NCBI GenBank assembly: GCA_029261195.1
Contig: JAJDBU010000036.1
Coordinates: 6,087-70,086 of the forward strand
Reading direction: 5' to 3'
DNA length: 64,000 nucleotides
Origin: Nitrospirota bacterium
GTDB taxonomy: Bacteria > Nitrospirota > Nitrospiria > SBBL01 > JAADHI01
The notes beneath the pieces were generated by a model. That model searched no databases. It saw nothing but the letters and a program-made list of their open reading frames with translations, and was not told the origin of the DNA. Position 1 is the stretch's first letter, and every line of letters starts with the position of its first letter. Both the position numbers and the translations under genes were made by a program. Positions 8,578-64,000 of the stretch are shown piece by piece.

Positions 8578-8586
8578 CAGCGCGTC

Positions 8587-13737: not shown

Positions 13738-15477
13738 GTGAAAACCATCAATCCCTTCGAAGAGGTCAAGCGCCGGGTCGACATTGTCGCAGTTATCGAG
13801 AAGTTCACCGGAATGGCTGTGACAGGCAGGGGAAACCATCGCCAGTTACCGGAGTGCCCCTTTTGCAAGGGGCATCACTGCTTTTCTATTACGATCGACA
13901 AGCAGCTCTTCAACTGTTTCCAGTGTCCGGGTGAGTCAACTGGCGGGGATGTGTTTTCCTTTCTCGCTAGGCTTAAAGGATACGATCTCCGTTCCGCTTT
14001 GGAAACCCTTGCAGTAGAGGTGGGGGTATTACTCCCCCATGCTTCCGTTCGCTCAAAACCGGGAATACGGGAAGAGATCATGAGGCAGACCAAGGCCGAC
14101 TGGAGCCTGCCGGAGGCAAAGTCTTTTTGGGACTACCTGGTTGATGAGAGGAAATTATCCGGACAAGTCTTGAAAGCACATGATGTCGGTTATCTGAGAA
14201 GCCGGTCAGACCTGATCTCAAATCTGAAAAAAAAGGGTTATGCCTACGATGAAATCAAAGACTCCGGGATTCTGACCAGGGATTTCGGGGGGCGCTATCG
14301 CATTTTGTTCGGCTGGCGTGGTCTTGATGGAAAGATTGAGGGCTTCGTTTGCGCGATGACAAGGAATGCGCTTGCAAGCATTCCCCTTGCCGAAAAAGAC
14401 CGCTATCCGAAATATAAAAAGAGTGCGCATTTTCAGGCTCAATCGCCCTACAACCTCTTTTATGCCAAGCGCCGTGTTCCGGATGACCGGACACTCGTGA
14501 TCGTGGAAGGAATTGTCGATTGTCTTCAGTTGCGGTCGCATGGCATTCATAACGTCGTTGCCCTGGGTGGGAGTGCTTTAAAGGAGGTGTTCATTCCGGC
14601 CTTGGAGCGCACACGTTTTGAGCGTTTGATCCTTTTGTTTGACAGCGATCACGCCGGTACGGAGGGGACGGATCGGGCGATTCGGATTTTACTGAAAGAG
14701 GGTCCCAAGTTCTCTCTCTATGTGGCGCAGATCGGGGCCTGTGATCCGGAGGATGAAACGCGGATCATCAAGGATCCGGATGAAGTGATCTGTAAAAAAG
14801 GGCCGGAGGTTCTCCGGGCTGTCATTGATGTCCCGGTTAAGGCCGGTCCCTGGATAGTCGGTGCGATGTGGAATCAGAACGATATGAAGAATCCCTTGCA
14901 CCGGGATAAGGTATTACAAGATGTCGGTACCCTATGGCATTGTTTTCCCGATGAGGTCGAAAAAAAGGAGATGCTTGTCGTTTTATCCGAGGCCTGTGCT
15001 TTGCCGCAGGCTTATATTCTGAAGACGATTGAGCAATACGGGGCACGACTTAGAAAGACGATCACGGATGTAAATAAGGCGAATATTGCCGAGCAATCCA
15101 CGGGGAATAAGGGAGTTGCTTCTTCTGCTCAAACGGAAAAACACACTGCGCTCAAAATAAAACTCAAGTCGGAGGTCCGGAAAAACCGGGAGCTTGTCCA
15201 AACGAATCGGCTGTTATTAAAGGCCTATACCCGCCTTATCTGTCAGGCGAAGGCGCTGTCTAAAGCGGGACTGCTCTGGCATGTCTCCCGCTTAGCGGAA
15301 GGCCATACGATGCTGATCAAGCGCATCCGAAACGATCCGAATAAGGCGACGGCATTGATCAAGAAGGTGGACGCTGTTTTCTCTGCTTCGAAATTGAATG
15401 ATCTCGCGCAGATCAATCGGGATATTGAAGATCTGTCCGAAACTTCGGAGCCAGGCGGGAGCACAGACCATGCTTAA
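13738..15477 (+). CDS. DnaG-type DNA primase (CHC2 zinc finger + Toprim)
   Basis: GTG start. The zinc finger is CPFCKGHHCFSITIDKQLFNCFQCPGESTGGDVFSF. The Toprim region reads LVIVEGIVDCLQL...LLFDSDHAGTEGTDRA. Confidence 0.85.
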   Translation: MKTINPFEEVKRRVDIVAVIEKFTGMAVTGRGNHRQLPECPFCKGHHCFSITIDKQLFNCFQCPGESTGGDVFSFLARLKGYDLRSALETLAVEVGVLLPHASVRSKPGIREEIMRQTKADWSLPEAKSFWDYLVDERKLSGQVLKAHDVGYLRSRSDLISNLKKKGYAYDEIKDSGILTRDFGGRYRILFGWRGLDGKIEGFVCAMTRNALASIPLAEKDRYPKYKKSAHFQAQSPYNLFYAKRRVPDDRTLVIVEGIVDCLQLRSHGIHNVVALGGSALKEVFIPALERTRFERLILLFDSDHAGTEGTDRAIRILLKEGPKFSLYVAQIGACDPEDETRIIKDPDEVICKKGPEVLRAVIDVPVKAGPWIVGAMWNQNDMKNPLHRDKVLQDVGTLWHCFPDEVEKKEMLVVLSEACALPQAYILKTIEQYGARLRKTITDVNKANIAEQSTGNKGVASSAQTEKHTALKIKLKSEVRKNRELVQTNRLLLKAYTRLICQAKALSKAGLLWHVSRLAEGHTMLIKRIRNDPNKATALIKKVDAVFSASKLNDLAQINRDIEDLSETSEPGGSTDHA

Positions 15478-36500: not shown

Positions 36501-38692
36501 CAGACTGGGTGGTCAATCTTGATGCTCTATTGGATAAAAAAATATTAGAAGAGTTTGGGGCCAACGTTATTAAATATCGCAAAGCCCGTCATATCGATCG
36601 TAATCTTGTAATCTCATCAAAATCAAATCCCATACTACTAAAAAACCATTTAGTTAAAAAGTTTCAAGACTTTGGTGTAGATGCCAGTATTATCAAAATA
36701 GCTGTTGATAATATTATCAAATCCGCTAATGAACTATCAGGAGACATACTGTTAAAAGCTATTGGTCGTGGCTGCTTTGCTAATGAGATGCTAGGTCTTG
36801 TCCTTACAAAAACCATTTTGGAAGGATGCTCCCCTCATGAAAATATTCTGATATTCATTGACGATTATGCCGATTGGTTTTTGTCTAGCATAAGCTCCGA
36901 AGAGAAACTGTTGGTCCCGCAAAACAATGTGTTAGCGGATATTCTTTTTATTACTCCGGTGTTCCATGAGGGAAACCTTTCAAACATATATATCGATGTT
37001 GTAGAAGCAAAATTTTGTAATGAAACTAATCGAGGAAATCTAGCTAAAAAATCTTTGCAACAAACGAAAAACTCATTTTTTCAAATCAAAAAAGTGTTTG
37101 ATGACAATGCCTACGCTGATAAGGATTATTGGCGAGCAAAAATATCTGATTTAATAGTTGAAAACCACCATAAAAGCTTTGTCGGTAATTTGACATCTGA
37201 AGATATTAGAAATGCTATTCGACGTGATAAAACGATACGATTTATTGTCCGTGGCATGTCATTTGTGTTTGTTTATGACCATGAAGAAGATTATCAACCT
37301 TCGGCAAATAGGGAAGATGTAGAGCAATATATTATTGGTTCCAAATCTATAGTTACAATGCTTGAAAAAATACCGCTATTCGACTCATCAATGTCTTGTT
37401 TATCATTACCTACATTTGAGTTGCAATCTCCCCAACAAAAAGAGGCAGTGTCATCTACGACTTACATTGAAGAAACCCCGAAAAAAAACATAGGTCTAAA
37501 TTCAATTGAGAGTACAAATACAGTCCAAACGGACATTGTTAGTATCTCTGTGAAAAAGAGTGATAAACAATTTGTTGATGTTAATGCAAAAATTGTTTCG
37601 TTACAAAAAATGGAAGAAGAAAAGTCTGAAGGTGAGGCTATAAGTCTCGCAGTGAAAAAAGTAGTTATGTACCACAAGTATCGAGCAAAGATACGGAGCT
37701 ATTTATTCACTCCCAACGCAGTCAGAATATCACTGGAGCCAGAGCTCGGTTGGAATGAGAATATTTTCTATAAAATGATAAATGATTTTCTTGCTGTTGA
37801 AAAATTGAGGTTATTACGCGTGGAGGTTGTTCCTGGAGCTTACGACCTAATATTTGAAAGGAAAGAGCGACAAATTATTTCATATGAGGACTGCTTAGAA
37901 GACAGAGAGATAAGTGATGGGGCAGGTAATACAAAAATCCTGCTTGGCCGTAATGAGCAAAATAACCAAGTAGTCTACTATAACCTCGATAGTGAAGATC
38001 CTCATGCACTCATTGGAGGCATGACAAAAAGTGGTAAGAGTGTTCTATTGAATGTTTTTATTGTCGATTTAATGTGCACAAATACAGTTGATGAATTACT
38101 ATTGATTTTGGTAGACCCAAAACAAGTTGAGTTTACACGATATAAGGGCATTCCATACTTAGATCCCGAAGGGATAGTAACGGGAAAAAAAATAGCAATT
38201 AGAAAGCTTAATGATTTAGTCGTTGAAATGGATAGACGTTTTCTGCTCTTTGCGGAAAGTGGGGTCAATGAACTCAATAAGTACAATAAAAAAGTTCAAA
38301 CTAAAATCCCTAGAATCGTTCTCATTTTTGATGAATTTGCCGACTGGATGCTTGATGACGAATTTAAGAGGGATGCTAGTAATGCAGTTCAAAGCCTTTC
38401 TGGCAAAGCTCGAGCTGCTGGTATACATTTGATAGTCAGCACTCAACGTCCAGATAATTCCGTTGTTGTGCCTATCTTGCGAGCTAATTTAGGAGCGAAA
38501 TTCGCCTTACGTGTTGACAGCGAAAAGAACTCCGCCATCATTCTTGATGAGCCAGGGGCTGAAAAACTTTTAGGGTACGGACATATGATAGCTAAGTTCG
38601 CAGGCAAGAAACAGTATATTCAAACAGCATTCGTTTCTGATGGTTATATTGACTCCATACTCGATAAGATTAAAAGGGCGGACTCAAAATAG
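33509..38692 (+). CDS. Giant DptH/SspH-like protein with C-terminal FtsK/HerA-type ATPase domain
   Basis: 1727 aa. The C-terminal domain reads HALIGGMTKSGKSVLLNVFIV (Walker A)...LILVDPKQVEFTRY...RIVLIFDEFADWM (Walker B)...AAGIHLIVSTQRPDNSVV...ANLGAKFALRV. Its stop TAG (38690..38692) coincides with the left IS30 inverted repeat. Confidence 0.55.
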   Translation: MNFIASYLVENIIKEAQISSTEGTSGKFILTNYPQEVIGEIINYFLTHPHLNILLVIDRKFPIDLKTTNIVYATHEVMAQYRNENVQHTDIDLDTITYLVFITNETIDTLNDINTLTPDDIARDFESVVASIKNRLLDNESKEKLRKVCRVFLKEVDEIDPFQMEQFIQAVLSHLNNGNPIEDAMGLSINALNSFRCRKCFESLKKNDSIKNIKKIAQSYKAIAVALFKRVGNKTLDEEALNEKFKENITEFDLLDPQKQKLLKQFIHADYREIVQLREQFSTLDWQKDHVYRLFEKTRSDTSKKLGAETVELLELSDIELADYEKNSLLQYDDLKPSERTGLRDTLEPIYKDHKPLIENNKALRNKWDKFLYPSQTKSDNFIIALLDTIKKLKSDVTYIDSIEVTLKHTQTAAIVRNYSKHPINYLHKRYSVLNRISNKIVFDLKFIVDIDERLKKEKLSPDDKKFRKGSLSKSANELHFIVYAKNSSGKRIAKRKLIWNYNPNTVLNGYKEDAEVVQYHLKNKRLHSSIVYRASSSEKGEKKPLSLHDFSSLESRGKISGHRLFQKKNERGFSSNEIKASAKAILDPDDYTDFQTLFSEYLKQYSWLLGQLDIQKNVEKSGFDFDGVEKLSQIYVNLCQFLYNNSDNDTFKAEVIEPFLSLITVRVGQEDTVIIPSYHPMRLISFFVKLKHVFEFMDAYIVTPDLARIKEDLFFNDLEQSCNTPYYPEIFRLFEAEGSERSLLHISEACDDYTILEPVQRFLDSGQSTDSSSQSIILSKVIENYLDLNSHKQSSLKILLHAVNNYELPVKFMKKLMSLDFTSKENNFEIYLNDVDASHIRKMYRAFLISQNAQGAEEALEYNEVSFLSNIRLNAFDQSFKQLDNVNDQINIAFLNDFVSSKATLEFRKQLLEESYPLFDFHPTMWSKRKYMSEQESNVGKYLVSPAKSDLTSAFYNLLYLTMSTHRDDYKDKIPTLKVDRNNKRLQADLEAIHKRTDWVVNLDALLDKKILEEFGANVIKYRKARHIDRNLVISSKSNPILLKNHLVKKFQDFGVDASIIKIAVDNIIKSANELSGDILLKAIGRGCFANEMLGLVLTKTILEGCSPHENILIFIDDYADWFLSSISSEEKLLVPQNNVLADILFITPVFHEGNLSNIYIDVVEAKFCNETNRGNLAKKSLQQTKNSFFQIKKVFDDNAYADKDYWRAKISDLIVENHHKSFVGNLTSEDIRNAIRRDKTIRFIVRGMSFVFVYDHEEDYQPSANREDVEQYIIGSKSIVTMLEKIPLFDSSMSCLSLPTFELQSPQQKEAVSSTTYIEETPKKNIGLNSIESTNTVQTDIVSISVKKSDKQFVDVNAKIVSLQKMEEEKSEGEAISLAVKKVVMYHKYRAKIRSYLFTPNAVRISLEPELGWNENIFYKMINDFLAVEKLRLLRVEVVPGAYDLIFERKERQIISYEDCLEDREISDGAGNTKILLGRNEQNNQVVYYNLDSEDPHALIGGMTKSGKSVLLNVFIVDLMCTNTVDELLLILVDPKQVEFTRYKGIPYLDPEGIVTGKKIAIRKLNDLVVEMDRRFLLFAESGVNELNKYNKKVQTKIPRIVLIFDEFADWMLDDEFKRDASNAVQSLSGKARAAGIHLIVSTQRPDNSVVVPILRANLGAKFALRVDSEKNSAIILDEPGAEKLLGYGHMIAKFAGKKQYIQTAFVSDGYIDSILDKIKRADSK

Positions 38693-52288: not shown

Positions 52289-54751
52289 TCACCTCAATAA
52301 CTCCTCTAAGGCAGTTTGCCTCTCATTCGCTTCCTGATGGCGAATCGCCATTGAAAGTGCTCGACGGGTCCCGACGAAGACCGCGAGGGTTTTGGCTCGG
52401 GTTAGGCCTGTGTAGATGAGTTTTCTGTAGAGCATCTTGAAATGCTGTGTGAGGACGGGAATGATGACAGTTTTGAACTCACTTCCTTGTGATTTGTGGA
52501 TAGTGATGGCGTAGGCGAGGTCGAGTTCCATGATGTCTTCTTTTTTGTATTCCACTTCCCTTTCATCCGGGTAGAAGGAGACAATGCAGGTAAGATTTTC
52601 ATTGTCGATATTTTTGATCTTTCCGATGTCACCGTTAAAGACATTCAGGTCGTAGTTATTTCTTCGGTGAATGACTCGGTCTCCTTCTCTGAAAATCTTT
52701 TCTCCGACCTTGAGTTGATGTTTCCCTCCAGCGGGGGGATTGGCTTTTTCCTGGATGATGCTGTTCAGATTTGCGGTTCCGAGACTCCCTCTCGTCATTG
52801 GAGATAAGATCTGGATTTCTGTTGTATTGCCGTGATATTTCGGGATCCATTCCAGGTAGAGCTTTGTGACGATGTCGACGGCTGTGAGTCGGTAATGGAG
52901 TGATGACCAGGGGTGGATCTTTTTTATGAGGGTCTTTAAGGCTTCAACTCCGCTTTCAGTCTTGTTGAGTTTTTCCAGGTCGACATGTTCGTATTTCGGG
53001 GGAATGACAAATTCTTCTTCGTAGGCGGACGAAATCTCTTCTTCCGTCCTGAAGGCGAAGGGACTTTCTTTGCATGAGGCGATGGCTTCGAGTTCCGCTG
53101 TTTTCCAATCAAAAAGCCGTTTGACTCGACCGATGAATTTGATCTGATCCTGAGTCGCTTCGTCCGAATCAATGAAGAGGCAATCTTGTTTGTCGTGCCA
53201 GATAGAAGGACGTTTGAAGGGGGATTCTATCGGTGGGATCTTTCCGGTGTTGATCTGGTGGGCGTATTGGATGATGGCAGATTCCTGGGCCTGACGAAAA
53301 ACTTTTGTAAGTCGAAAACAGGGGACGGATTTTGACGCGATGATGTCGTTCAGAACATTTCCGGCCCCGACGGACGGAAGCTGGTCGGCATCCCCGATGA
53401 AAAGAACTTGGCAATGTTGTGGCACGGCCTTTAGAAGTGCGGCGCTGAGGCTGATGTCGAGCATGGAGCATTCGTCGACAATGAGGAAGTCAGCCTTTAA
53501 GGGAGAGGTGTCGTTCTTCTGGAACTCTCCGCCTCTCCATTCAAGCATCCGATGGATCGTCTTGGCCTCCCGCCCAATGACTTCGTGCATCCTCTGGGCC
53601 GCCCGTCCGGTCGGTGCGGCAAGAAGGACATCTTTTCCCATTGCTTCGAGTAGTCTGACGATGACTTTTGTCGTGGTGGTCTTCCCGCAACCGGGGCCTC
53701 CGGTCAGGATTGAAAATTGGTATGAGACGACACCCTCGACCGCTTCGGCCTGTTCATCACTCAATGAGATCGAGTTGTTTTTGCAGTAGCGGACAATCCA
53801 GTTGGAAATCCGGTCTTGATCGCCTGGGATAGCTCCTGTCATTTGCTGGAGCTTTTGCGCGACGCTTGTTTCATCGTAGTAGAGGCTTTTTGAGTAATAA
53901 CAACGGCACTCTTTCCCCTCTTGATCCAGGTCTCGGACCCGGAGCTGCCCCTCTTTCAGCATCGCTTCAAGATATTCCGTGAGCTGTGCGCCGAGATCGA
54001 TTTCGATGAGTTCTTTGACCTGGGTTTGGATCTGGTTTTCAGTGAGGTAACAATGACCCTGCTCCCGACTGGCAGAAAGGACATGCCGGATGGCGGCATT
54101 GATCCGTTGAATGCTGTCTCCGGCAAGACCGATGCTTAGGGCGATCTTATCAGCTGAGAAGAAGCCGATGCCGTAGATGTCGGTAGATAAACGGTAGGGG
54201 TCTTCCGTGACATTTTGGATGGCTTTGTCCCCGTACTTTTTATAGATTTTGACGGCAAAGAGGGTACTGATGCCGTGGCTCTGGAGGAACATCATGACTT
54301 CGAGGATGGCCCGGTGCTCCCGCCAGGCCTTCACAATCATGCTTAATTTCTTTTGAGCGATTCCGGGGACTTCTGTGAGGCGGTCAATCTCATGTTCAAA
54401 GATCTCAAGGGTATCTTTGGCGAAATGTTTGACGATCTTTTTTGCGGTCTTCGGGCCGACACCTTTGATCAAGCCGGATCCGAGATATTTTTCTATTGAG
54501 GCGGTCGTAGCGGGTTTCTTCTCAATGGCTTCGGTCGCTTTGAATTGGCGACCGAATTTCGGGTTAAAAGTCCAAGCGCCCTTAAATTCCATCGTCGCCC
54601 CGGCAAAGACTTTCGTCTGATGGACGGTGACGGTCTCCTGCTGCTCAGGTCGGTCGAAGGGATTGACCCGAAGGACGGACCAGGCATTCTCAGGGTTGTG
54701 GTAGGTGACGCGATTGACGATGCCGCAAAGTGTCTCAACGATGGTGGTCAT
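52289..54751 (-). CDS. recD2: RecD2-like SF1B DNA helicase (RecD/TraA family)
   Basis: 820 aa. The N-terminal OB-like region is followed by an HhH (LGSGLIKGVGPKTAKKIV, EVPGIAQKKL). Walker A is LTGGPGCGKTT, then AAPTGRAAQRM, and Walker B is LIVDECSML. The C-terminal YAITIHKSQGSEF and TRAK are present. Confidence 0.9.
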   Translation of the reverse strand: MTTIVETLCGIVNRVTYHNPENAWSVLRVNPFDRPEQQETVTVHQTKVFAGATMEFKGAWTFNPKFGRQFKATEAIEKKPATTASIEKYLGSGLIKGVGPKTAKKIVKHFAKDTLEIFEHEIDRLTEVPGIAQKKLSMIVKAWREHRAILEVMMFLQSHGISTLFAVKIYKKYGDKAIQNVTEDPYRLSTDIYGIGFFSADKIALSIGLAGDSIQRINAAIRHVLSASREQGHCYLTENQIQTQVKELIEIDLGAQLTEYLEAMLKEGQLRVRDLDQEGKECRCYYSKSLYYDETSVAQKLQQMTGAIPGDQDRISNWIVRYCKNNSISLSDEQAEAVEGVVSYQFSILTGGPGCGKTTTTKVIVRLLEAMGKDVLLAAPTGRAAQRMHEVIGREAKTIHRMLEWRGGEFQKNDTSPLKADFLIVDECSMLDISLSAALLKAVPQHCQVLFIGDADQLPSVGAGNVLNDIIASKSVPCFRLTKVFRQAQESAIIQYAHQINTGKIPPIESPFKRPSIWHDKQDCLFIDSDEATQDQIKFIGRVKRLFDWKTAELEAIASCKESPFAFRTEEEISSAYEEEFVIPPKYEHVDLEKLNKTESGVEALKTLIKKIHPWSSLHYRLTAVDIVTKLYLEWIPKYHGNTTEIQILSPMTRGSLGTANLNSIIQEKANPPAGGKHQLKVGEKIFREGDRVIHRRNNYDLNVFNGDIGKIKNIDNENLTCIVSFYPDEREVEYKKEDIMELDLAYAITIHKSQGSEFKTVIIPVLTQHFKMLYRKLIYTGLTRAKTLAVFVGTRRALSMAIRHQEANERQTALEELLR

Positions 54752-55138: not shown

Positions 55139-58100
55139 TTATTCAGCAACAAGCATGTCAAAATAACTCGATAGCTTCATATTCTTTTCTGCAACATCTT
55201 CAATCTCCCGCTCCAAAGACTCAATGAGTAAAGAGACCGAAACCTCCTTTGCGTCCTTAAGCCAAATTGAATATTGCACCACGGCCTCCTCAATCGCCTT
55301 TTTACAAAAACCTTCGACGGTCTTGGCATTGAATATCGGCCTCGTATCAACAAAATGGAAGACTTCCCGATCGGTAAAGAGTCCCGGGAATGCGCGTTGA
55401 TGTGTCTGAGAAAAGAGAAAGGTGTTGAGCATGTATGCCTTCCCGTTTTGGATATCCGGGAAGCCCGATATCATCTGAGGCGAGATAATATCGAAGATCT
55501 TCACGTTCTCCCCAAGCCGACTCAAATGCCGTAGCACAGGAGCATCCGGCTGAGTTTTGTTCAAGACCTCTTCCATTGCTGCGATCTCTTTGTAATGCTG
55601 CGGAAAGAGCGGGCGAAGGCGTCCCGCCATCTGCATTCGTACCTCAGCATTGTCTAGCCCTTCGCTCATAAATCCGTACTGGGTATAAAACAAGTTGAAG
55701 CCTTTCAAGATCGATTTTGTGGTGGCGACCAGGGTCCGTCCCATGTTTTCACCCAAGCGATCAAAGGACTCCAGCAAGCGATACCGTTCCGACTTCTCCG
55801 TTTTGCCCGTCACGGAAAATTCTGCCTTTGTGGCAGAAAGCAAACTTTGTTGCGAGAAGCGATACCGGCAAGAGATGAGAAGTTGGACTTGATGAGATCT
55901 CGTGAGCTTCGACATCCGGCGCGCATAATTTTCGAAGCCAGCGCATCTTGAAATGAGCAAGCGAATCCGATCGAGATCCCCCTTTTCTATCTTCAGATTG
56001 ATCCCACCTTCCGCCAATAACACGGCCAGCCGATGTAGAATCCGGTCCGCAAACCGGAGGACCAGAGGAAAGTTCAAGGACTCGGACGCCTTGAAGATAA
56101 TCCCGTACTCAGCCAAGGCCTGCGCCAGATCGACATGCTCGGAACCGATATCATGGATGACTTCATTAAAACGTTGCGCCTCCAGTCCGATCCGGCCTTT
56201 CGCTTCATCTTGCAGGATCGCCAAAGTCTCACTGAGAAAGATAGGGTATTTTGCCAGGATAGAGGGCCGGAAGTGGATCAGTTCATCTTCTTCCGTCCCG
56301 ATTTTATTCAGATCATTTTTGAAGTGTTCAACAAGCTCATTAAAGGTCTGCTTGCCTTGCCTGAGACCCAATGCCACGCCCAGGGTTTCCAGGATCATGG
56401 CCCGTTTTTTCTCAATCTCTTCCTCCTCTTGTTCTATCCTGCCGCGCAGATGGTCTTGTGATCGATTCTCCAACAAATTCAGCAACTCGAAATAACGCAC
56501 CGGCGCAAAAAACTGAGCCAGTTCCTCAATCAGACGATTGCCGAGGATCTCTCCTTCGGATAGTTCCTCCAGTATACCGATCAAGGCCGCTTTCTGATCC
56601 AGTCGCGCCGCCAGATAGGCATGGGACTCTGTCTCTTCCACAATCTGAAATCCCTTGTGTACCTTCCGTGTCACCTCCTCTTGCTTCGGGATCAGTGGCA
56701 CGCCATGCATGAAAGCGTAAGTGGCGAGAAATTCCATACGGAGTTTTCTGCATTCGCCTTCCACCTCTTTTTTCACTACCCACCAGGTCCGGTTATAGGA
56801 ACGCACTTTCCTGACCATGTTGACGAACATCGTCAGGTTCAGGAATTGTCGGATCTTCTCCAAGACCTCCAGGTTGGTCACTGCCTCAAGCAGGTTCGGC
56901 TGGAGTTGCTTGGCGTTCATCTGGAAATGGACCTCTTCTTCGGCATTCAATGCGCGATCATAAGTCAAAGCCGAAGTCATGGATTTGAGCAAAAGCAGAC
57001 AAGGAATTAAGGTGTCCAGATCCCTCGATCCGGGATGAACCAGGGGTTTCTCCAAGCCGATGAGGGGACGAACCGGCTCTTCTATCGGCTGGATGATCCG
57101 TGTATGACCAACTCCCAGTTTTGCCATGATATCGACTAAGGTCGCCTGAATTTCTTTGCCGTCTCGGTTTTGACCCAGCCAGGGGGTAATCGGAAAAAGA
57201 CCGGCATTAAAAGCCGCGTGGTAATAACAGGCCAAGACAGCGCCGGCACAGTCGGTATAGATCAGCTCATGCATTGCTTTTTCCGTCGGGTTTTTATCCG
57301 CATCGTCGACCCTGCTCGATCCGTCTTTTGAGGTTTCAAGAAGATTGAAATCGATCAGCACGCCAGTCCGTGAACTGCTGGTTCTTAAGAGGTTCAACAG
57401 CCGATGTAATGTCAGGCTGTTTCTGTCGTAAATGCGGTCTTGAAATGCGCTCAACACCGACTGCATATGATGGGCAATTTTGGGATAGGCGTAGAGAAAT
57501 GCACCGACATTGATTTGATTGGTCGACAGCAGGTAAAGAAAATCACCGGTATCGTTATTCACCGGGGTGGCCGACAGTCTGTAGTCGACCCGAAGGACTC
57601 TCTTCTTTTTCAGATAGCCATAGAGGGTTTCCATCGCAGAAGAGATGCCGCTCTCTCCATTTTTCATGAAAGAAGATTCGTCTGCGACGATCATGAAGTG
57701 AAATCCCCTGCGAACAAGAATCTCCAAGGATTGGATAATGTCCTGTTTTTTCTTTAATCCGACCTCATGCCGACTCAAGACAACACAATCGCCATCCTGG
57801 AGTTTTAGGGAAGAGAGGTTTTTTATCCGGACATGATGCAGCTTCTCTTCCGGAACCCCGATCTCAATCATCGACTTGATCACATTCTCAACCAGGTTGG
57901 CCTCCGTCAGGTACAGGGTGATGATCCCGGGAACGATCTTCCCGCGTTCCGATTCCGCCTTTGCGATGATTTCAGTAAACATCTTCAGGAAGATCGGCGT
58001 CGTATAGGTCTTTCCTGCACCGACCTGGGCAAAGTTGTTTAATCTGAAAAAATCTTTCGGATGCCGTCTTTTTGAGAGAAAGGATTGCAGGCCCAGATAG

Positions 58101-58978
58101 GCGTAAAAAAGTGCCTTCTCCTGCATCGCGGTCGGAGATCCAGCGAAACCAAAGGAGATCTCCTTGATAAAACTCTGGAATGTAACAAAGCACTCCAAGT
58201 GAATCTCCGAGCCAGAGCCTGATTCACTCAACATCTCCTTCTCAAGGCTTTTGGCCTGTATGGAGACAAAGGTCGATAAAGAAGCCCAGGAGGCAATTGA
58301 AGAGACGAACATGTTGTCGCATAAATCGGCAAGTTCCTGATATTGCGCCAAGGCTTCTCCTAATTCGAGGCCTGTGCTGCCTCGATTTTTCAAAACGGAC
58401 AAGTGATCGACGATCCTGCCGTTCTCTATCTCGCACTCAGCAATGATCAATCCGATCTCAGTGAGAATTCTCCCCAACTTAGTGTTGTCCGGGATGGTCG
58501 TATAGAGGCATTTAAAGAATCGATAATCACATAGAAAAGGATTCTCCTTTTCTTTTTTTCCTTCCTCTTCTGTGGTATCAATGTGTGCCACCTCTTCCTC
58601 CTGGTGATAGCAGCATTCCAGCTCCCGCAGTCTCCCCATCAAATGCTTCAAGGGCGTGATCCTTTTTTCGAAGCGGTCCATAAATACTTCTCTGAACTTC
58701 CGGGCATATGGCAGCAGGAACAATCCGTCGTCATGCTCTGCAACCCTGATCACCGGAGGATTTCTTCTGCTCTCTTTCTTCGGAAATGAGAGCTTGGTCA
58801 CTGGAACTTCCGGAATATGAATGGTTTGAATCGGATCAATCGGCCGCAATTGTCCGATCTCGTCTTCAATCTCTGCTGCCACAATCTCAGGGGAATGGGA
58901 AAAGGATGTAATCCTCTGATGGAAATCACGAAGCTGATCCAGCCTTGTTTGTAAGGTCTTTGATAAAAGTTCGTTCAT
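55139..58978 (-). CDS. 1279-aa SNF2/DEAD-like SF2 helicase-family protein
   Basis: Motif I is FAQVGAGKTYTTP, motif II MIVADESSFMKN, motif III YRLSATPVNN and motif VI-like QMAGRLRP near the C-terminus. There are long insertions between the two RecA-like halves. Confidence 0.65.
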   Translation of the reverse strand: MNELLSKTLQTRLDQLRDFHQRITSFSHSPEIVAAEIEDEIGQLRPIDPIQTIHIPEVPVTKLSFPKKESRRNPPVIRVAEHDDGLFLLPYARKFREVFMDRFEKRITPLKHLMGRLRELECCYHQEEEVAHIDTTEEEGKKEKENPFLCDYRFFKCLYTTIPDNTKLGRILTEIGLIIAECEIENGRIVDHLSVLKNRGSTGLELGEALAQYQELADLCDNMFVSSIASWASLSTFVSIQAKSLEKEMLSESGSGSEIHLECFVTFQSFIKEISFGFAGSPTAMQEKALFYAYLGLQSFLSKRRHPKDFFRLNNFAQVGAGKTYTTPIFLKMFTEIIAKAESERGKIVPGIITLYLTEANLVENVIKSMIEIGVPEEKLHHVRIKNLSSLKLQDGDCVVLSRHEVGLKKKQDIIQSLEILVRRGFHFMIVADESSFMKNGESGISSAMETLYGYLKKKRVLRVDYRLSATPVNNDTGDFLYLLSTNQINVGAFLYAYPKIAHHMQSVLSAFQDRIYDRNSLTLHRLLNLLRTSSSRTGVLIDFNLLETSKDGSSRVDDADKNPTEKAMHELIYTDCAGAVLACYYHAAFNAGLFPITPWLGQNRDGKEIQATLVDIMAKLGVGHTRIIQPIEEPVRPLIGLEKPLVHPGSRDLDTLIPCLLLLKSMTSALTYDRALNAEEEVHFQMNAKQLQPNLLEAVTNLEVLEKIRQFLNLTMFVNMVRKVRSYNRTWWVVKKEVEGECRKLRMEFLATYAFMHGVPLIPKQEEVTRKVHKGFQIVEETESHAYLAARLDQKAALIGILEELSEGEILGNRLIEELAQFFAPVRYFELLNLLENRSQDHLRGRIEQEEEEIEKKRAMILETLGVALGLRQGKQTFNELVEHFKNDLNKIGTEEDELIHFRPSILAKYPIFLSETLAILQDEAKGRIGLEAQRFNEVIHDIGSEHVDLAQALAEYGIIFKASESLNFPLVLRFADRILHRLAVLLAEGGINLKIEKGDLDRIRLLISRCAGFENYARRMSKLTRSHQVQLLISCRYRFSQQSLLSATKAEFSVTGKTEKSERYRLLESFDRLGENMGRTLVATTKSILKGFNLFYTQYGFMSEGLDNAEVRMQMAGRLRPLFPQHYKEIAAMEEVLNKTQPDAPVLRHLSRLGENVKIFDIISPQMISGFPDIQNGKAYMLNTFLFSQTHQRAFPGLFTDREVFHFVDTRPIFNAKTVEGFCKKAIEEAVVQYSIWLKDAKEVSVSLLIESLEREIEDVAEKNMKLSSYFDMLVAE

Positions 58979-59077: not shown

Positions 59078-59893
59078 TTACGCCGCTTTCTTTTTCTCAG
59101 GCGTTTTCTTCCTTGGTTTTCTGACTCCGTATCCGAAGCGTCTCCAAGCCTTTGGATCAATCGCCAATACGGTTGTACTCCTCGGTTCAAGGCTGATGTA
59201 AGCCGCCGAATATTCGAGGTAGCCGTAACGCAAGGCCTTCCAGAGCATCTCGGCGGCCTCTATGGCAACCAGGGGATTGATAAAGAGATCCTGTTGTTCG
59301 ATGGCCTCAGCCAGAGAACAGGAAGGCCCCTGGTCGTCGTCTTCTCCCTCAGCCAACTCCGGATAGAGATCAAGAACGGTCGGAAGCCGATTGATCGTCT
59401 TGACTCCGGGTGTTGTAGGTTGTTGTGTTTTACCAGTGGACCCGAAGACGACCTGTCCCTGACGTTGCATATTCCCGCAATCCATCCAATACGGATGATG
59501 GTAAGTTCGCCGAAGTGCGCGGCCGATCATGACTCTTGACCTTGCGGTATCCACCGCAGTAATCACGAGTTTAGGAGAACTCGAATAGCTGACCGGGTAG
59601 GCGACCGGATGTCCTTCCCAATCGAAACCGGTGCATTGATTGATTCGAGTGACCAAGACCGACACTTTCGGCAAGCCGATATCCGGTTCATAAAACATCT
59701 GCCTGCCGACATTGGCTGCGCTGACGAGATCAGGGTCGTACATCACGACATGGAGACCCGGATGGCCCAAAGCCAGAAGCGTCGTATTGAGTTGAACAAG
59801 TCGGGTCGCGAGGTGGCTTCCGGTCCCGCCGCAACCGACCAGATGGATAAGGGTCGGTCTTGTACCGGTCAAGGATCTGAGATAATGCCGCAT
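59078..59893 (-). CDS. ThiF/E1-like adenylyltransferase (PRTRC-system ThiF family)
   Basis: 271 aa. The Rossmann motif LIHLVGCGGTGSHLATRL is present. It is the last gene of the ParB-linked cassette. Confidence 0.8.
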   Translation of the reverse strand: MRHYLRSLTGTRPTLIHLVGCGGTGSHLATRLVQLNTTLLALGHPGLHVVMYDPDLVSAANVGRQMFYEPDIGLPKVSVLVTRINQCTGFDWEGHPVAYPVSYSSSPKLVITAVDTARSRVMIGRALRRTYHHPYWMDCGNMQRQGQVVFGSTGKTQQPTTPGVKTINRLPTVLDLYPELAEGEDDDQGPSCSLAEAIEQQDLFINPLVAIEAAEMLWKALRYGYLEYSAAYISLEPRSTTVLAIDPKAWRRFGYGVRKPRKKTPEKKKAA

Positions 59894-60534
59894 GTCATCT
59901 CCTTACCAGAAGACTTCCAGAGACTGATGTTCTCAGAATCCTCAAAGAAAAACCCGGACAGACAGAGGCGGATCGCCGTGTCGAGTTCGGCCAAGGCACG
60001 GCCCTTTGCACAATTCCCTATTACCAGAGAGAAGTGAGCTGTCCCCTGATCTGATCGATTATCCGTTTCGGAAAAGAAGGCAGGTCCCCGGCCATGGCTG
60101 TGCATGTCCAGGACGAGGGAAGTTTCCGGGGCAAGCTCCGGCCATCGAAACATCACAGAGCCCACGTTTTGCACAAGAAGGTCAAGTTCCAGATATTGCC
60201 AGCCTTCATCAGCACTCCAGATAATCCATGCGGCCGTTTCAAGCCCCTCTTGTCCCGATTCATTCGCCTGCGCCACAAATCGTTCCAGAAATCGGATCGG
60301 AATAGCACCACTCAAAAGTGCTGTCTTTTCCTCGACGGATCCATAGGGAAGCGGACGCGGACTCTCAAAGATCCTTTTGATCAATACACCCCATGCCGTT
60401 TTCGCCTCGATCCACAGGCCGTCGTCTGCTATCAGTAAGCGGGAGCGGTTTTTTTGAAGTTCCGGTAACGATTCAAACTGCGGAACCATGAGGGTCGGAA
60501 GGTGGTTTTGAAGCAGGATGTCTTTTCGGTTCAT
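59869..60534 (-). CDS. JAB/MPN metalloprotease-domain protein (PRTRC protein A-type; letter assignment tentative)
   Basis: 221 aa. It carries an exact JAMM motif H-x-H-x7-S-x2-D in LDMHSHGRGPAFFSETDNRSD. Confidence 0.75.
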   Translation of the reverse strand: MNRKDILLQNHLPTLMVPQFESLPELQKNRSRLLIADDGLWIEAKTAWGVLIKRIFESPRPLPYGSVEEKTALLSGAIPIRFLERFVAQANESGQEGLETAAWIIWSADEGWQYLELDLLVQNVGSVMFRWPELAPETSLVLDMHSHGRGPAFFSETDNRSDQGTAHFSLVIGNCAKGRALAELDTAIRLCLSGFFFEDSENISLWKSSGKEMTCGIISDP

Positions 60535-61243
60535 AAAGATTCCTTTCGATCAAAAGCTGACGCAAGGTCTTTCCGGCAGGTTTGATCAAGTGATAGGGAA
60601 AGCGTTTTCTTTTTCCCGAGAGCAGGGCCTGCCAGAATTGCTCAAGCGTGCCCTTGATCAAGAAATCCCGATCATCGACGTTGGGATGCGTGAATGCGCT
60701 GTTGTAAAAGCTTTCCGCCCAAGCTGTAATATCGCAAGGCCGACAGCCTGCGGGCATCTTCGTCTGTCCGGTGCAGACGCTATGATCTTGATAGACATTC
60801 AGGAAAGGGGGGCATAGTAGAGTCGTATCAAGGTCGGGGCGTTTGTCGCCTTTTACAACATAGATCAAAAGTTTTGAAGGTTCTGCAAGCATGACCATGG
60901 ATGGCCACAGAACAATGCCGCTCGTTAATCCCGTTCTAAGCCCGAAATAGATCGGTCTTCGCACGGAAGGGCGAAAGAAGATCAACGGGCCATTGTCTCC
61001 GGAACCGTAGGCCAGAAGAGAGAGATCAACCCACCCGAGGCGGAAGATCAGTGAGGGAAGAACGCACTTGCATAGTTCCTCAAGCGCTCTTTTAGAAACG
61101 GATCGTCCAGCTTCCAGTTGGGGAACCCCTTTGGCATCGGTCCTCACCGGATGAATCTGCCAGTAATGGACGGCGCCGCCATAGGTATCTGAATCGGCGT
61201 AGCATAGGAGCGCCGTTTTTAATTCAAGTGTCTCCACCATCAT
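60473..61243 (-). CDS. PRTRC protein B-type; possible E2/UBC-like component
   Basis: 256 aa. The assignment rests on its position in the cassette. The segment LLCPPFLNVYQDHSVCTG plus a downstream HPN tripeptide is described under findings. Confidence 0.5.
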   Translation of the reverse strand: MMVETLELKTALLCYADSDTYGGAVHYWQIHPVRTDAKGVPQLEAGRSVSKRALEELCKCVLPSLIFRLGWVDLSLLAYGSGDNGPLIFFRPSVRRPIYFGLRTGLTSGIVLWPSMVMLAEPSKLLIYVVKGDKRPDLDTTLLCPPFLNVYQDHSVCTGQTKMPAGCRPCDITAWAESFYNSAFTHPNVDDRDFLIKGTLEQFWQALLSGKRKRFPYHLIKPAGKTLRQLLIERNLYEPKRHPASKPPSDPHGSAV

Positions 61244-61245
61244 AT

Positions 61246-62340
61246 TTATTCTCCCTCCTTCTTTTCTGCTTGGGGCGGATTAGTAAGACGGGCACCCTCA
61301 TAAAAGAGATCGAACCATTCGGAAGACCGCTTCAGCAGACGAACACTTTCGCCCACCTGTTCCGCATTGTTGAACGGCAGGATTGAGAAGGGCTCGCTTC
61401 CCCCTTGATATTCTGAGTCCAGCATTTCAGAGAAATACTCGGTTAAAGGATCTCTTGGAGACCAGAGAAGGGGCGTAAGATAACCCGGATCGAGAAGGCA
61501 GGCATCCGGGAGGAGGTCGTAAGCCGGGAAATAAGGCATCGGGTTTTCCCAAGTCAGGCTGGTATCGAAAACCGCTCTCGCCCAGTGCCACCATGGATGT
61601 GTCCATGCGGATGCCGGAGGGCATCCAGGAAACGCAGGAAAGCGCGGTCGTTCTTTCATCCGGAGAAGGAAGCGGTAGTCTTTTGGAATGTGATTCTCAA
61701 TCCAATTCAGTTCGTTTTTGATCGCTGCTCTTTCATCGGCTTCCAGACCGGCATCGTTTATTTGTTCTTCACTCCAATCCTGGTATTGTTCAAAACAATC
61801 GTCGTAGGTATAGGTATTTCTGAACCAGCAGAGCATCTTGAGGGCTGCGATGACTACGCCCTCCAAGCTTTTATCCGACTCCCCGATCTTCGGCAGAATG
61901 TCGCAGAAGATGACATCGACATCATACGGATGATGGATCATCAGGCAGATGCCATTTGGCTCACCGGCATCCCCGAGCTTCTCAAGCGTTAGAGTGCCGC
62001 CGGATACTCCCACCATCTTGGATTCCAATTTTGAGAGGAGACTTTCGATCCATGAAACAAGCGCCGCCTTGATCCGGTCCGGATCGGTATTGGAAGCCCA
62101 GGGACCGGGGGGCACAATCTCCTCATCTTTTATGATTTGAGAAATCCAGAGACCGATCTGAGCAAGTTTGCCGTTGTCGATGCCGACGTTCACATGGTCA
62201 AGCCTGGAAGGAATCCCTTCTAATACGGGGAGCGCGATCAATGCAGAAGTGGAAGTCTCTCGCTTGGCAGAACGACCTCTCCTGTCTGCCCGTTTTGATT
62301 TTGTCCGCCGAATAGTTGTGTCAGCAGTCTGTGTGGACAT
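61246..62340 (-). CDS. PRTRC protein F-type (uncharacterised, 364 aa)
   Basis: A strong RBS (AAGGAGG) lies 6 nt upstream of the ATG. It has a basic N-terminus. I recognise no motif, so the assignment rests on cassette position. Confidence 0.5.
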   Translation of the reverse strand: MSTQTADTTIRRTKSKRADRRGRSAKRETSTSALIALPVLEGIPSRLDHVNVGIDNGKLAQIGLWISQIIKDEEIVPPGPWASNTDPDRIKAALVSWIESLLSKLESKMVGVSGGTLTLEKLGDAGEPNGICLMIHHPYDVDVIFCDILPKIGESDKSLEGVVIAALKMLCWFRNTYTYDDCFEQYQDWSEEQINDAGLEADERAAIKNELNWIENHIPKDYRFLLRMKERPRFPAFPGCPPASAWTHPWWHWARAVFDTSLTWENPMPYFPAYDLLPDACLLDPGYLTPLLWSPRDPLTEYFSEMLDSEYQGGSEPFSILPFNNAEQVGESVRLLKRSSEWFDLFYEGARLTNPPQAEKKEGE

Positions 62341-62645
62341 CCGCTTCCTCCTTTTTTGTTACGCTTAATATCGGCTTGGCTGTTTGTCTCTTTCGCCGCC
62401 ATATCCGCCAGCGCTTGCACGGTGATGGGAGGCGATTGCTCGCCCCCCTTTGTTCCCACTGCCCGTTTGATTGCGTAGACCAGAGTGTCCCCCCTCCGGA
62501 CAGGCTCTTCCATGACCGCCTGCGACAATTCCGGATAAACGGCGGTGTAGAAGTGTTTAACGTCCTCTGGATTCATCGTTGGATCCGGATCGTTCAGACG
62601 CATACCGCTGTATTCAAAGATTCGTTCAATCAGTCGTTTTTCCAT
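62238..62645 (-). CDS. Small ubiquitin-like candidate (PRTRC protein C-type) with C-terminal extension
   Basis: This is ORF 62238..62660 trimmed to ATG 62645, which sits 4 nt after AGGAGG. The first 68 aa end ...LVYAIKRAVGTKGG, and 67 further residues follow. The tail overlaps the next gene by 103 nt. Confidence 0.6.
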   Translation of the reverse strand: MEKRLIERIFEYSGMRLNDPDPTMNPEDVKHFYTAVYPELSQAVMEEPVRRGDTLVYAIKRAVGTKGGEQSPPITVQALADMAAKETNSQADIKRNKKGGSGCPHRLLTQLFGGQNQNGQTGEVVLPSERLPLLH

Positions 62646-62668
62646 TTTTCCTCCTGACAAGTGAATGC

Positions 62669-63070
62669 TTATTGAAAGAGACTGAAGTCTTTTGACTCCG
62701 GTTTTGTTTCGGTTTCTTCCTTCGCATTTGGTTTATCTTTTGTTCGATCGGGCGTCTTTTCTGTTGTTGATATCGCCTTTTTGATCGCCTCTTGTTTGGC
62801 AAGAAAGGCGCGTTGCAACATTCCTTCGGTTGTGCCGGTTTCTTCCAACATCCGCATAAAGTCATTGTTTAATTCTTCCGGCGTCCCTTCCAGGACCATT
62901 GGCACGCGGGCTTGTTGGTAGTCCTCTTTTTTCTGTCCCTTCAATGTGTCAATCGCCGGGTAGATCGGCTGGACCAGAACGACCAGATGGGCGTTTCGGC
63001 CTGCTGTGATTGTGAATGAGATCTTGCCTTGCGGGGGGATGAGTGATGCAATTTTGTTAAAGTCGAACAT
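62669..63070 (-). CDS. PRTRC protein E-type (133 aa, acidic/lysine-rich tail)
   Basis: The sequence reads MFDFNKIASLIPPQGKISFTITAG...MVLEGTPEELNNDFMRMLEE. It is assigned by its position between the ParB-like and Ubl genes. Confidence 0.5.
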   Translation of the reverse strand: MFDFNKIASLIPPQGKISFTITAGRNAHLVVLVQPIYPAIDTLKGQKKEDYQQARVPMVLEGTPEELNNDFMRMLEETGTTEGMLQRAFLAKQEAIKKAISTTEKTPDRTKDKPNAKEETETKPESKDFSLFQ

Positions 63071-63117
63071 TTGTGATCTCCATTGTTATTGTGGTGGAAC
63101 AAAATGACGGGAGGGCC

Positions 63118-64000
63118 TTAAGAAAGGCTGAGTGTTTCCGGATGAAGCCATTTCGGGAGCTTCGTTCCAGAAATGACGCAATTCAATACCCCTTCGATCA
63201 GCTTCTTTTTGGGCTGGTTTGCCAGTTTTTTGATCGACAAGCCCTTGTGCTTGGGTGAGTTGTCGAGGTCAATTTCCTTGGCCGTGGCCTCAATCTCTCT
63301 TTTGGTCAAAAGTTCAAGATAGGCCTTGTCCAGAGAGAAAAGGTCCTCGGGATGTTTCTTCAGATCGACAAAGAGCATCTGTTCGACTGTCTCAAGACTG
63401 AGCTTCGGAATCACCCGGGTCGCCATACGGCCAGCGAGAGGAAAAAGAGCCTCAATGTTCTGAGGCCTTGTTCCTGCCAGTAGGCGGATTTCGAGGGAAT
63501 TACCTTGGTTAGTCGCAGCGCTGTCCAATTTTTTCATTAACGAATCAGATGAGAAATCCCTGAGCCATGCAGCATTTGCCATCGCGATCATGGCAAGCCG
63601 GAGCGCATTTTCATGCGTCCCGGTAAACGCTTTCATTAGATAGTCATCATATTGTTTCCTCTTGTACTCCTTGACCCGCTGTGGGACATTTGCGGTGCTC
63701 ATTTTTTCCGGATCACCACTATTACTCTTCCCTGTCTTTCTTGAGGAAGCATCTGGTGTCCTTTGGGAATCAAGCGTTTCCTGACGTCCATTCGAAGAAA
63801 CAGAAGTCTCTTTTTCAGCATTCTCCGCCCGAAAGGCGGCGGCGCGTTCCTGATAACAGGCCTGCTTTGTACAGATGTTCTGTTTGAGCAGATGACCCAT
63901 GTTGGAAATGAAGACCACCAGGAATTGGCAGCTCTGGCAGTCAGACAAGTTGCTTTCCCCTAACTCCGCTTTGTTGTGTATGACGGACTGAGTCGGATTG
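63118..64000 (-). CDS. ParB-related protein (PRTRC ParB family), 5' end beyond window
   Basis: The ORF track starts it at TTG 63948. My translation shows the frame stays open to nt 64000 (...NPTQSVIHNKAELGESNLSDCQSCQ...). Only the C-terminal helical part is visible, so the ParB call is contextual. Confidence 0.45.
   Translation of the reverse strand, partial: NPTQSVIHNKAELGESNLSDCQSCQFLVVFISNMGHLLKQNICTKQACYQERAAAFRAENAEKETSVSSNGRQETLDSQRTPDASSRKTGKSNSGDPEKMSTANVPQRVKEYKRKQYDDYLMKAFTGTHENALRLAMIAMANAAWLRDFSSDSLMKKLDSAATNQGNSLEIRLLAGTRPQNIEALFPLAGRMATRVIPKLSLETVEQMLFVDLKKHPEDLFSLDKAYLELLTKREIEATAKEIDLDNSPKHKGLSIKKLANQPKKKLIEGVLNCVISGTKLPKWLHPETLSLS

Follow-up and report, generated by a model that had tools for sequence, protein, structure and literature searches.

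A tailed ubiquitin-like protein in a Nitrospirota PRTRC cassette as a candidate precursor for JAB-dependent maturation

Introduction

ThiF-type E1 enzymes act on a free C-terminal Gly, and eukaryotic ubiquitin (polyubiquitin with its extra residue, UBA52, and RPS27A), SUMO, and NEDD8 are made as pro-forms from which a C-terminal extension is removed to expose that residue. The DNA studied here, a stretch of 64,000 nucleotides (nt) of the Nitrospirota contig JAJDBU010000036.1 that we call the window, raises the question of whether a bacterial conjugative element makes a protein of this kind. In a cassette of the PRTRC type lies a gene for a ubiquitin-like protein (Ubl) whose open reading frame (ORF) occupies positions 62238..62645 of the minus strand: 135 codons, from an ATG at 62645 with AGGAGG in front of it to a stop codon at 62238-62240. 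After the sequence GTKGG the frame stays open, running through the ribosome-binding sequence and the ATG of the next gene. What is this tail for, and does it stay on the protein?

An earlier note on this DNA gave two possible answers, a precursor (pro-Ubl) trimmed by the adjacent JAB protease and an artifact or phase-variable switch at the run of six G residues (G6) that encodes the Gly-Gly. Its description of the ORF, the G6 run, the AAGGAGG sequence, the downstream ATG, and a 103-nt overlap agreed with our own reading of the sequence. As a whole, the explanation that we favor, with somewhat better than even confidence, is that the PRTRC-C protein is a precursor and that its tail is cut off after residue G67, most likely by the JAB peptidase PRTRC-A of the same cassette.

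PRTRC cassettes occur widely, on conjugative plasmids as well as on integrative and conjugative elements; one protein search matched 268 plasmid records. The domains concerned were reportedly defined by Burroughs, Iyer, and Aravind in 2011. The pattern of tails and JAB genes described below turns the question into a testable idea, JAB-dependent maturation at G-x-K-G.

Results and Discussion

Where the conserved protein ends

The ORF at 62238..62645 encodes PRTRC system protein C, a member of the Prok_Ub family. Its core scored 78.7 bits against the NCBIfam model TIGR03738 (PRTRC_C; cutoff, 45.95), with profile positions 4-66 of 66 aligned to residues 5-67, and 78.4 bits against Pfam PF14454 (Prok_Ub; cutoff, 25). 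AlphaFold, given a homologue alignment, built a beta-grasp of strands and a helix over residues 7-60 with a confidence score (pLDDT) of about 88, followed by an extended segment at residues 61-75. A Foldseek search with the whole C model gave no significant match, a result that we attribute to the floppy tail.

Residues 61-68 read RAVGTKGG, and the earlier note had placed the activated end at the Gly-Gly. Because the match to the PRTRC_C profile stops at residue 67, the terminus of the family profile corresponds to G67. In a diverse alignment of cores, the only invariant residues were R8, F10, D19, K66, and G67. The position of G68 is a Cys (GRKGC) in the homologue from a Manganitrophus plasmid, and across the loci drawn from GTDB the residue next after KG is mostly A, G, or S. 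Since K66 and G67 are invariant and G68 varies, the conserved end is KG67, with G68 part of the tail. The mature protein thus likely ends in ...GTKG, and G68 is better read as the first tail residue than as the second Gly of a ubiquitin-style GG. Of the Gly pair singled out before, the first (62445-62447, minus strand) is retained as the proposed mature C terminus and the second is given to the tail. On the minus strand, the core with its AVGTKG end (residues 1-67) spans 62445..62645 and the tail (residues 68-135) spans 62241..62444. The boundaries 1-67 also define a construct for reconstituting the E1/E2 reaction.

Tails across the PRTRC-C family

The window protein, with 68 residues following G67, does not end at or just after the conserved Gly, and we asked how unusual this is. 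An exhaustive HMMER search with the 68-residue core as the query returned 757 cluster representatives, of which the best 150 were inspected. Among these 150, about 27 end at G-x-K-G or at most 5 residues past it, about 96 have tails of 35-95 amino acids (aa), and a few carry longer, unrelated C-terminal modules. Three more (P0024, P0071, and P0153) string four or five Prok_Ub units together head to tail, without a spacer and in the manner of polyubiquitin, and every unit closes on ...AGTKG. At least 51 of the 96 mid-length tails (about 70 by eye) close on one motif, hydrophobic-P-(S/P)-x-x-L/A-x-x-hydrophobic, at the very C terminus. The rarer long fusions include a module WPW..WWKPRDRI.NL..AGALIAAEIDRL, which occurs in P0044, P0083, P0123, P0132, and P0161.

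A second survey, a DNA pattern scan for F-[RK]-[RK]-A-V-G-T-K-G in one genome per GTDB species, was blind to what follows the Gly. It recovered 99 loci with a Prok_Ub core, 96 of them complete. Thirteen of the 96 end 0-2 residues past KG, and the other 83 have tails of at least 44 aa. As judged from their sequences, the tails fall into at least four unrelated classes. Class 1, with an LPSxxLxPLP-type end and a length of 44-87 aa, accounts for about 51 of the 96 complete loci, a DGLTYxE...RWLDRRWPVV-type tail for 18, and two further types for about 8 and 6. Besides the first two, the classes recognized in loci L055-L174 include the forms ...NWLD.GD.EFI...HC..AA and ...AHVCPLLDEEV.FI.AL. Tail lengths run from 44 to more than 190 aa, and no class ends in a conserved Gly. 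Tail class was considered as a correlate of the type of F gene and ruled out, as tails of classes 1-4 and short forms all occur with a canonical TIGR03742 F gene in Proteobacteria.

Plasmids carry both architectures. The short forms include those of pHG1 (74 aa, ...GAKGAHARI) and Burkholderia gladioli (...GAKGAHA), exact KG ends are found in Methylomonas and Deinococcus, and the proteins of Pseudomonas megaplasmids end in ...GDKG. Tailed forms of 124-137 aa occur in Azonexus, Dyella, Xanthomonas, and the Manganitrophus plasmid. The statement in the earlier note that PRTRC-C proteins end in GTKG therefore describes a minority (13 of the 96 complete GTDB loci), such as the classical plasmid forms of pHG1 and the Pseudomonas megaplasmids, and fails for the majority; an end near the Gly is not a defining feature of the family. 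The tailed architecture appears to be the majority form of PRTRC-C and has so far gone largely undescribed. The PRTRC_C family model covers the 66-residue core only, even though tailed members predominate in genomes.

A precursor that JAB may trim

In the model that we propose, the Ubl of the PRTRC cassette would be synthesized as a precursor consisting of the core to G67 and a 68-residue extension. We infer that the extension is cut off, that the cut falls after G67, and that the enzyme responsible is most likely the JAB/JAMM protein PRTRC-A of the same operon. Because an E1 needs a free C-terminal Gly, the extension would have to be removed, and the cut would free mature Ubl for adenylation and transfer. 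Before the cut, the tail would probably serve as a docking or inhibitory element, or it could act afterwards as a second released peptide.

The cassette has the parts that such a model calls for. Its order on the minus strand (59078-64000) is the canonical PRTRC order of ParB, E, C, F-position gene, B, A, and ThiF. PRTRC-A (59869..60534, minus strand) combines DUF2016 with a JAB/JAMM metallopeptidase domain (TIGR03735, 158 bits; PF09436 and PF14464), and in the translation its JAMM motif is intact, with the Glu in LETAAW and HSHGRGPAFFSETD matching HxHx7Sx2D. The family itself looks like one of precursors. The equivalent of Gly67 is invariant though internal in most members; a number of relatives terminate right at this residue, and others run on for 1-5 residues, as eukaryotic Ubl pro-forms do. 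Taken together, the exact-Gly ends, the poly-Ubl forms, and the unrelated tail classes form the sequence pattern of ubiquitin-type precursors.

The distribution of JAB genes was examined in GTDB loci with at least 3.8 kb of downstream DNA, supplemented with plasmid and further loci. All 42 tailed GTDB loci have B, A, and ThiF, and all of about 18 further tailed loci have A. Among 10 short-form GTDB loci, 8 have B, A, and ThiF, and the 2 that lack A both encode a Ubl ending exactly at the Gly. In all, four loci without JAB were found, L011 (p12969-DIM), L048 (Deinococcus grandis pDEGR-2), L082, and L130, and the Ubl ends exactly at the Gly in every one; B is followed directly by ThiF in L011, L082, and L130, while in L048 B stands alone within the 5 kb examined. 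Pooled, JAB is absent from 4 of 13 short-form loci and from none of about 60 tailed loci (P of about 7e-4, calculated without phylogenetic correction). This pattern would fit a peptidase that can be lost only where nothing needs trimming. There is also a bacterial precedent: the BubAB (Ubl-E2) pre-protein is cut directly behind its conserved Gly by the JAB of BubCD, and the JABs of Bil and CBASS systems likewise process pre-proteins (PMC11601596).

Several points weigh against this reading. The association of JAB with tails rests on four loci and ignores kinship. JAB is kept in 8 of 10 short-form GTDB loci, so that its presence is not specific to tails, and its retention in most short-form systems means that it must have another role, presumably deconjugation. 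The poly-Ubl proteins are known from protein sequences without genomic context. Text searches returned no mechanistic paper on PRTRC or Prok_Ub and no PRTRC biochemistry, and no solved PRTRC structure was detectable by sequence. Finally, a conserved C-terminal motif would be compatible with a permanently attached functional tail as well.

If the tail were permanent, PRTRC-C would be an adaptor in which a beta-grasp carries a C-terminal peptide that docks on F, ParB, E, or DUF2016; GTKG would never be exposed, and the E1, E2, and JAB proteins would act elsewhere or noncatalytically. The conservation of the end motif across distant clades suggests binding, JAB is kept in tail-less systems as well, and in many class 1 loci the C stop and the F start overlap (ATGA), as is typical of genes whose products assemble together. 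We still regard a permanent tail as distinctly unlikely. It leaves the invariance of an internal K66-G67 and the 13-18% of relatives that end exactly at the Gly without a reason, and a single fixed adaptor function is hard to reconcile with at least four unrelated tail classes whose lengths span 44 to more than 190 aa. The poly-Ubl forms need cleavage, and a ThiF E1 is kept in nearly every locus with enough downstream DNA (pDEGR-2, L048, being the exception), yet the tails have no conserved Gly at their ends. With both sides considered, JAB-dependent maturation of PRTRC-C, as suggested by these sequence patterns and by analogy with the Bub system, seems to us a moderately better bet than its opposite.

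A translated and conserved tail

Among 5.8 billion proteins searched, 17 homologues of the window protein were found, and a second search with a profile raised the number to 22. The 19 close homologues, at 126-145 aa, mostly span the whole query, tail included; those with names come from Nitrospiria and Candidatus Manganitrophaceae. The tail is conserved in all homologues of this clade. Invariant positions in the alignment include GTKGG, S71-P72-P73, T75, L79, L108, L131, and L133, a (C/W)-P-H motif is found within the tail, and the tails close on L-(P/S)-L-L-x before stopping at the same place. The tail frame is open in all 17-22 homologues, with conserved motifs and a conserved stop position, which argues against a chance open frame.

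Laid out along the minus strand, the tail begins at residue 68 with a GEQSPP linker, which is followed by a predicted helix at residues 76-87 (62385-62420), a disordered acidic/basic linker (pLDDT below 50), a second predicted helix, CPHRLLTQLF, at residues 104-113 (62307-62336), and a coil that AlphaFold leaves flexible. The extreme C terminus, VLPSERLPLLH (residues 125-135; 62241..62273), is an instance of the motif that ends tails family-wide, which can be written [hydrophobic]-P-[S/P]-x-x-L-x-P-L-[L/P]-COOH. AlphaFold placed no globular domain here, and the tail is therefore modeled as a flexible, motif-bearing extension without a folded domain.

One could suppose that the tail is functionless read-through and that its conservation is a by-product of the overlapping F-position gene and its Shine-Dalgarno (SD) sequence. 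The SD does fall on the KKGG residues of the tail, and the TG of the F ATG on its (C/W) residue. The part of the tail that lies upstream of the overlap is also conserved, however (SPP and TVxxLA), and homologous tails with the same end motif are found in many loci where the genes do not overlap. Differences counted by codon position across six loci point the same way. In the core, positions 1, 2, and 3 differ 223, 174, and 498 times; in the tail segment shared with the next gene, the counts are 220, 200, and 297, so that the wobble position of the tail frame varies most and that of the F frame (tail position 2) varies least. Over the same overlap DNA, conservation is lower in the F leader (25%) than in the tail (31%). 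We consider read-through to be largely refuted, with only a very slight chance of being right.

These comparisons indicate that the tail is translated and conserved as a protein, and its conserved motifs suggest a function of its own rather than that of a throw-away pro-peptide. It might dock on a partner from the cassette, hold the Ubl inactive, or act as a released peptide. Of the pro-Ubl proposal in the earlier note, the precursor is the part that is best supported, by the exact-Gly relatives, the poly-Ubl forms, the tail classes, the JAMM motif, and the loss of JAB, and the disposable pro-peptide is the part that is dropped. That note would have abandoned a pro-Ubl altogether if homologues commonly carried equivalent tails with conserved sequence. 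They do carry them, and we do not take this as a refutation, because conserved tails can be removable, as in BubAB and in ubiquitin-ribosomal-protein fusions, and because AlphaFold models this one as flexible.

The G run and a hairpin at the junction

The G6 run (62443-62448, minus strand) comprises the third base of K66 followed by bases of G67 and G68. An artifact or phase switch at this run, with the true or an alternative gene ending near the Gly pair, was suggested by the position of the tract at the junction. Across 14 loci, taken from independent assemblies and different lineages, neither the tract nor its flanks vary, and the tail beyond is conserved as protein. As the earlier note had found by hand, the shifted frames stop far downstream; G5 would add 41 codons and G7 27, with no stop at GG and no conserved product. 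The phase-variable homopolymer was accordingly rejected, and an artifact or switch of either kind is scarcely credible.

The G run is instead the 5' arm of a 9-bp hairpin, or palindrome, GGGGGGCGA-gcaa-TCGCCTCCC, which covers codons K66-P73 (62427..62448, minus strand). It sits at the same codons in all 14 loci of the clade. When codons were compared across seven loci, only four of the invariant residues kept one codon throughout, namely G64, K66, G67, and S71, which all lie at the hairpin; some 30 other invariant residues vary in codon. When TKGGEQSPP was recoded synonymously in 11 loci, no more than 0.65% of the alternatives at any locus reached the stability of the observed sequence, whose energies are -15.5 to -21.8 kcal/mol against a recoding median of about -10. 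The loop varies in sequence and in encoded residues (E/G/D and Q/P/L/K), and the stem is constant except for three one-sided changes that keep a G.U pair on the sense strand and one change that makes a bulge. An alignment fold of the clade loci recovered this stem only and showed no compensatory changes. Each locus has a single copy, as does the 64-kb window as a whole. Other tail-bearing clades lack the hairpin, and Rfam contains no match to it. Taken together, the sequence comparisons indicate that the hairpin is under selection. Its place in this hairpin accounts for the fixed homopolymer and undoes the phase-variation reading.

What the hairpin does was approached by elimination. A rho-independent terminator has the stem, but the sense strand continues with AUCACCGUG and no U-tract. 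A repeated protein-binding site was ruled out, there being one copy per locus; a single binding site is conceivable. Pairing of a CCUCC arm with the SD of F as an anti-SD was dropped, as most loci have CCCCCC. A programmed -1 frameshift was rejected because the sequence A_AAG_GGG, which fits X_XXY_YYZ, lies inside the 5' arm of the hairpin and the stops of the -1 frame are not conserved. A short form or a C-F fusion made by frameshifting also fails, since the -1 frame is the F frame and is closed between the G run and the F ATG except in L007.

The hairpin could in principle yield a short Ubl with no protease involved, by mRNA cleavage or 3'-end formation, or by ribosome stalling or drop-off after GG, with full-length C as a minor or regulatory product. 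A selected hairpin exactly at the boundary of core and tail would suit this idea, as would the true terminator that short-form plasmids have at the equivalent place. The lack of a U-tract on the sense strand tells against it, and a nonstop product would extend several residues beyond G67 and, as a rule, be marked for destruction. Other tailed clades all lack the hairpin, so it offers no general solution, and protein-level constraint implies that the tail is translated. We think this route highly improbable and return to cleavage of the precursor as the preferred source of the mature Ubl.

Canonical intrinsic terminators, each with a GC stem and a T run, lie between the Ubl gene and F in pHG1 (L010, 5220-5309) and in the B. 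gladioli plasmid (L050, 5199-5297). These short-form terminators suggest attenuation that sets ParB, E, and Ubl above the downstream enzymes. A role of the junction hairpin in uncoupling upstream from downstream expression is conceivable. Whatever its role, the comparison draws attention to a hairpin under selection, at the RNA or DNA level, within coding sequence.

The start of the F-position gene

The gene that follows the Ubl gene (61246..62340, minus strand; 364 aa) has no family match and is identified by its position between C and B. Its SD sequence, AAGGAGG (62347..62353, minus strand), lies in tail codons K-K-G-G, and its frame is -1 (equivalently +2) relative to the tail. The dual-coding overlap is 103 nt long (62238..62340, minus strand) and comprises the last 34 tail codons and the first 33 F codons. 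In 11 of 11 clade loci, an SD-like sequence stands 5-8 nt before a conserved ATG, the overlap is 97-109 nt, and the F frame is open. When the tail was resampled synonymously, the F frame stayed open with a probability of 0.04-0.6 per locus, and the product over five lineages is about 1e-3.

The overlap encodes a disordered F leader of 33 aa, rich in R, K, S, T, and P, which runs into an invariant L-I-x-L-P motif starting exactly at the C stop. In the window, this N-terminal motif is ALIALPVLEGIP (62209-62244, minus strand), beginning right at the stop codon of the tail, and the curated profile of canonical PRTRC_F begins at the equivalent motif. At least four lineages have no start codon upstream of L-I-x-L-P other than the SD-ATG within the tail. 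Outside the clade, in loci with class 1 tails, the F start abuts the C stop or overlaps it by 4 nt (ATGA). The window subclade keeps a TTG at this ancestral position (TTGA, 62238-62241), and it is the start that gene callers picked. These sequences are most simply explained by an upstream shift of the F start, through which a new leader was overprinted on the tail. In our model, the F start of the Nitrospirota clade would thus have shifted by about 100 nt into the tail, and a very stable hairpin would have become fixed at the core/tail junction.

Gene callers mostly start the F-position gene at the TTG or further downstream. The upstream ATG was the called start in only one of the contigs looked up and, apparently, for the database protein P0176. 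The overlap corrects an annotation habit, as callers that begin F after the Ubl stop miss a conserved 100-nt dual-coding region.

On sequence grounds, the F-position protein cannot be classified as PRTRC_F. It had no match to the TIGR03742 profile even at an E value of 10 or less, and an hhalign comparison with canonical PRTRC_F was not significant (probability, 1%). Its ALIALPVLEGIPSRL resembles ALALPNLEGIPTRY of a canonical F, whose profile opens with an N-terminal motif of the form A-L-x-L-P-x-hydrophobic...I-P, and the AlphaFold model of the F-position protein, at a pLDDT of 42.7, was too poor for a comparison of folds.

A broader version of the precursor model would have one PRTRC-C gene give two products. 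The JAB cut after G67 would free both the Ubl and a conserved peptide of about 65 aa, which would dock through its LPSxxLPLP-type end on a protein of the cassette or the host, as an activation switch or an inhibitor, in a manner comparable to ubiquitin-ribosomal-protein fusions. In the Nitrospirota clade, the hairpin and the overprinted F start would tune the amounts of tail and downstream enzymes relative to ParB, E, and Ubl. In this full form we put the proposal forward tentatively and think it unlikely.

Known counterparts

Classical PRTRC-C proteins, such as those of Cupriavidus necator pHG1 and the Pseudomonas megaplasmids, resemble the window protein in profile, in the order ParB-E-C-F-B-A-ThiF, in G-x-K-G, and in their carriage on plasmids or conjugative elements. 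The classical plasmid proteins have 70-74 aa and stop 0-5 residues past the Gly, with a terminator hairpin before F, whereas that of the window has a 68-aa tail, an in-frame hairpin at the junction, and a next gene that overlaps by 103 nt and is missed by the PRTRC_F profile. The junction hairpin and the overprinted overlap are clade-specific additions in Nitrospirota.

Bub and Bil systems likewise pair a bacterial Ubl that has extra sequence after its Gly with JAB, E1, and E2 proteins, although their protein families differ from those of PRTRC. In type I Bub, the C-terminal partner is an E2 domain, whereas in PRTRC-C it is a flexible peptide with a terminal motif; PRTRC accompanies ParB on conjugative elements, and Bub and Bil sit in defense islands. 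Cleavage after the Gly is experimentally established for BubAB (PMC11601596), and by analogy PRTRC-C would work like the Bub/Bil pro-Ubls. The principle of a bacterial pro-Ubl with its JAB is already established for Bub and Bil, and PRTRC-C is an extension of known biology.

The Prok_Ub family also recalls eukaryotic ubiquitin precursors in its head-to-tail poly-Ubl proteins and its fusions to unrelated modules. The differences lie in the end (G-T-K-G instead of R-G-G), in the processing enzyme, which would be a JAMM metalloprotease where eukaryotes use cysteine deubiquitinases, and in the tail, a conserved disordered peptide in place of a ribosomal protein. Like other overprinted bacterial genes, the C/F pair reads about 100 nt in two frames, and the younger product, the F leader, is disordered. 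Here the start has moved into the tail of the preceding gene, while related loci keep the ancestral 4-nt ATGA junction.

The rest of the cassette and its conjugative element

The remaining cassette genes are all on the minus strand. Upstream of the Ubl gene lies PRTRC-E (62669..63070), with 33 bits to PF19556 and 36.5 bits to TIGR03741, just under the cutoff of the latter. Beyond it, 63118..64000 encodes the C-terminal part of a ParB-family protein with a partial match to TIGR03734; the gene runs past the end of the window and encodes 583 aa in the source contig, with ParB_N and HTH_ParB domains. On the other side, PRTRC-B (60473..61243) is an E2-like protein of the Prok-E2_D type (TIGR03737, 156.5 bits; PF14460), and a ThiF-family E1-like adenylating enzyme is encoded at 59078..59893 (TIGR03736, 242.9 bits). 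A PADLOC scan gave weak E1 matches only.

Overlaps are found elsewhere in the cassette as well. PRTRC-B and PRTRC-A share 62 nt (60473-60534; 17-62 nt in related loci), with the last 24 residues of PRTRC-B lying beyond its family profile, and PRTRC-A and ThiF share 25 nt (59869-59893). In locus L006, which is on the same type of contig as L012, PRTRC-A appears to be split (8082-8721) into a 94-aa call with DUF2016 only and a JAB domain in another ORF, reflecting a pseudogene or else a fault in the assembly.

Directly after the ThiF gene, a 1279-aa ORF (55139-58978, minus strand) had no match in Pfam, NCBIfam, or PADLOC. The Nitrospirota loci L002, L004-L007, and L052 have a gene of 1273-1284 aa in the same position, and the ORF may be a further, uncharacterized part of this variant of the cassette.

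The window is a conjugative element. It encodes an F-type TraN (619-3228), TraC (3074-5569), a TrbI-like protein (6088-7242), a type IV coupling protein (11873-13666), a DnaG-type primase (13738-15477), a type I restriction subunit HsdR (20556-22940), an FtsK/SpoIIIE-like protein of 1727 aa (33509-38692), and a RecD2-like helicase (52289-54751).

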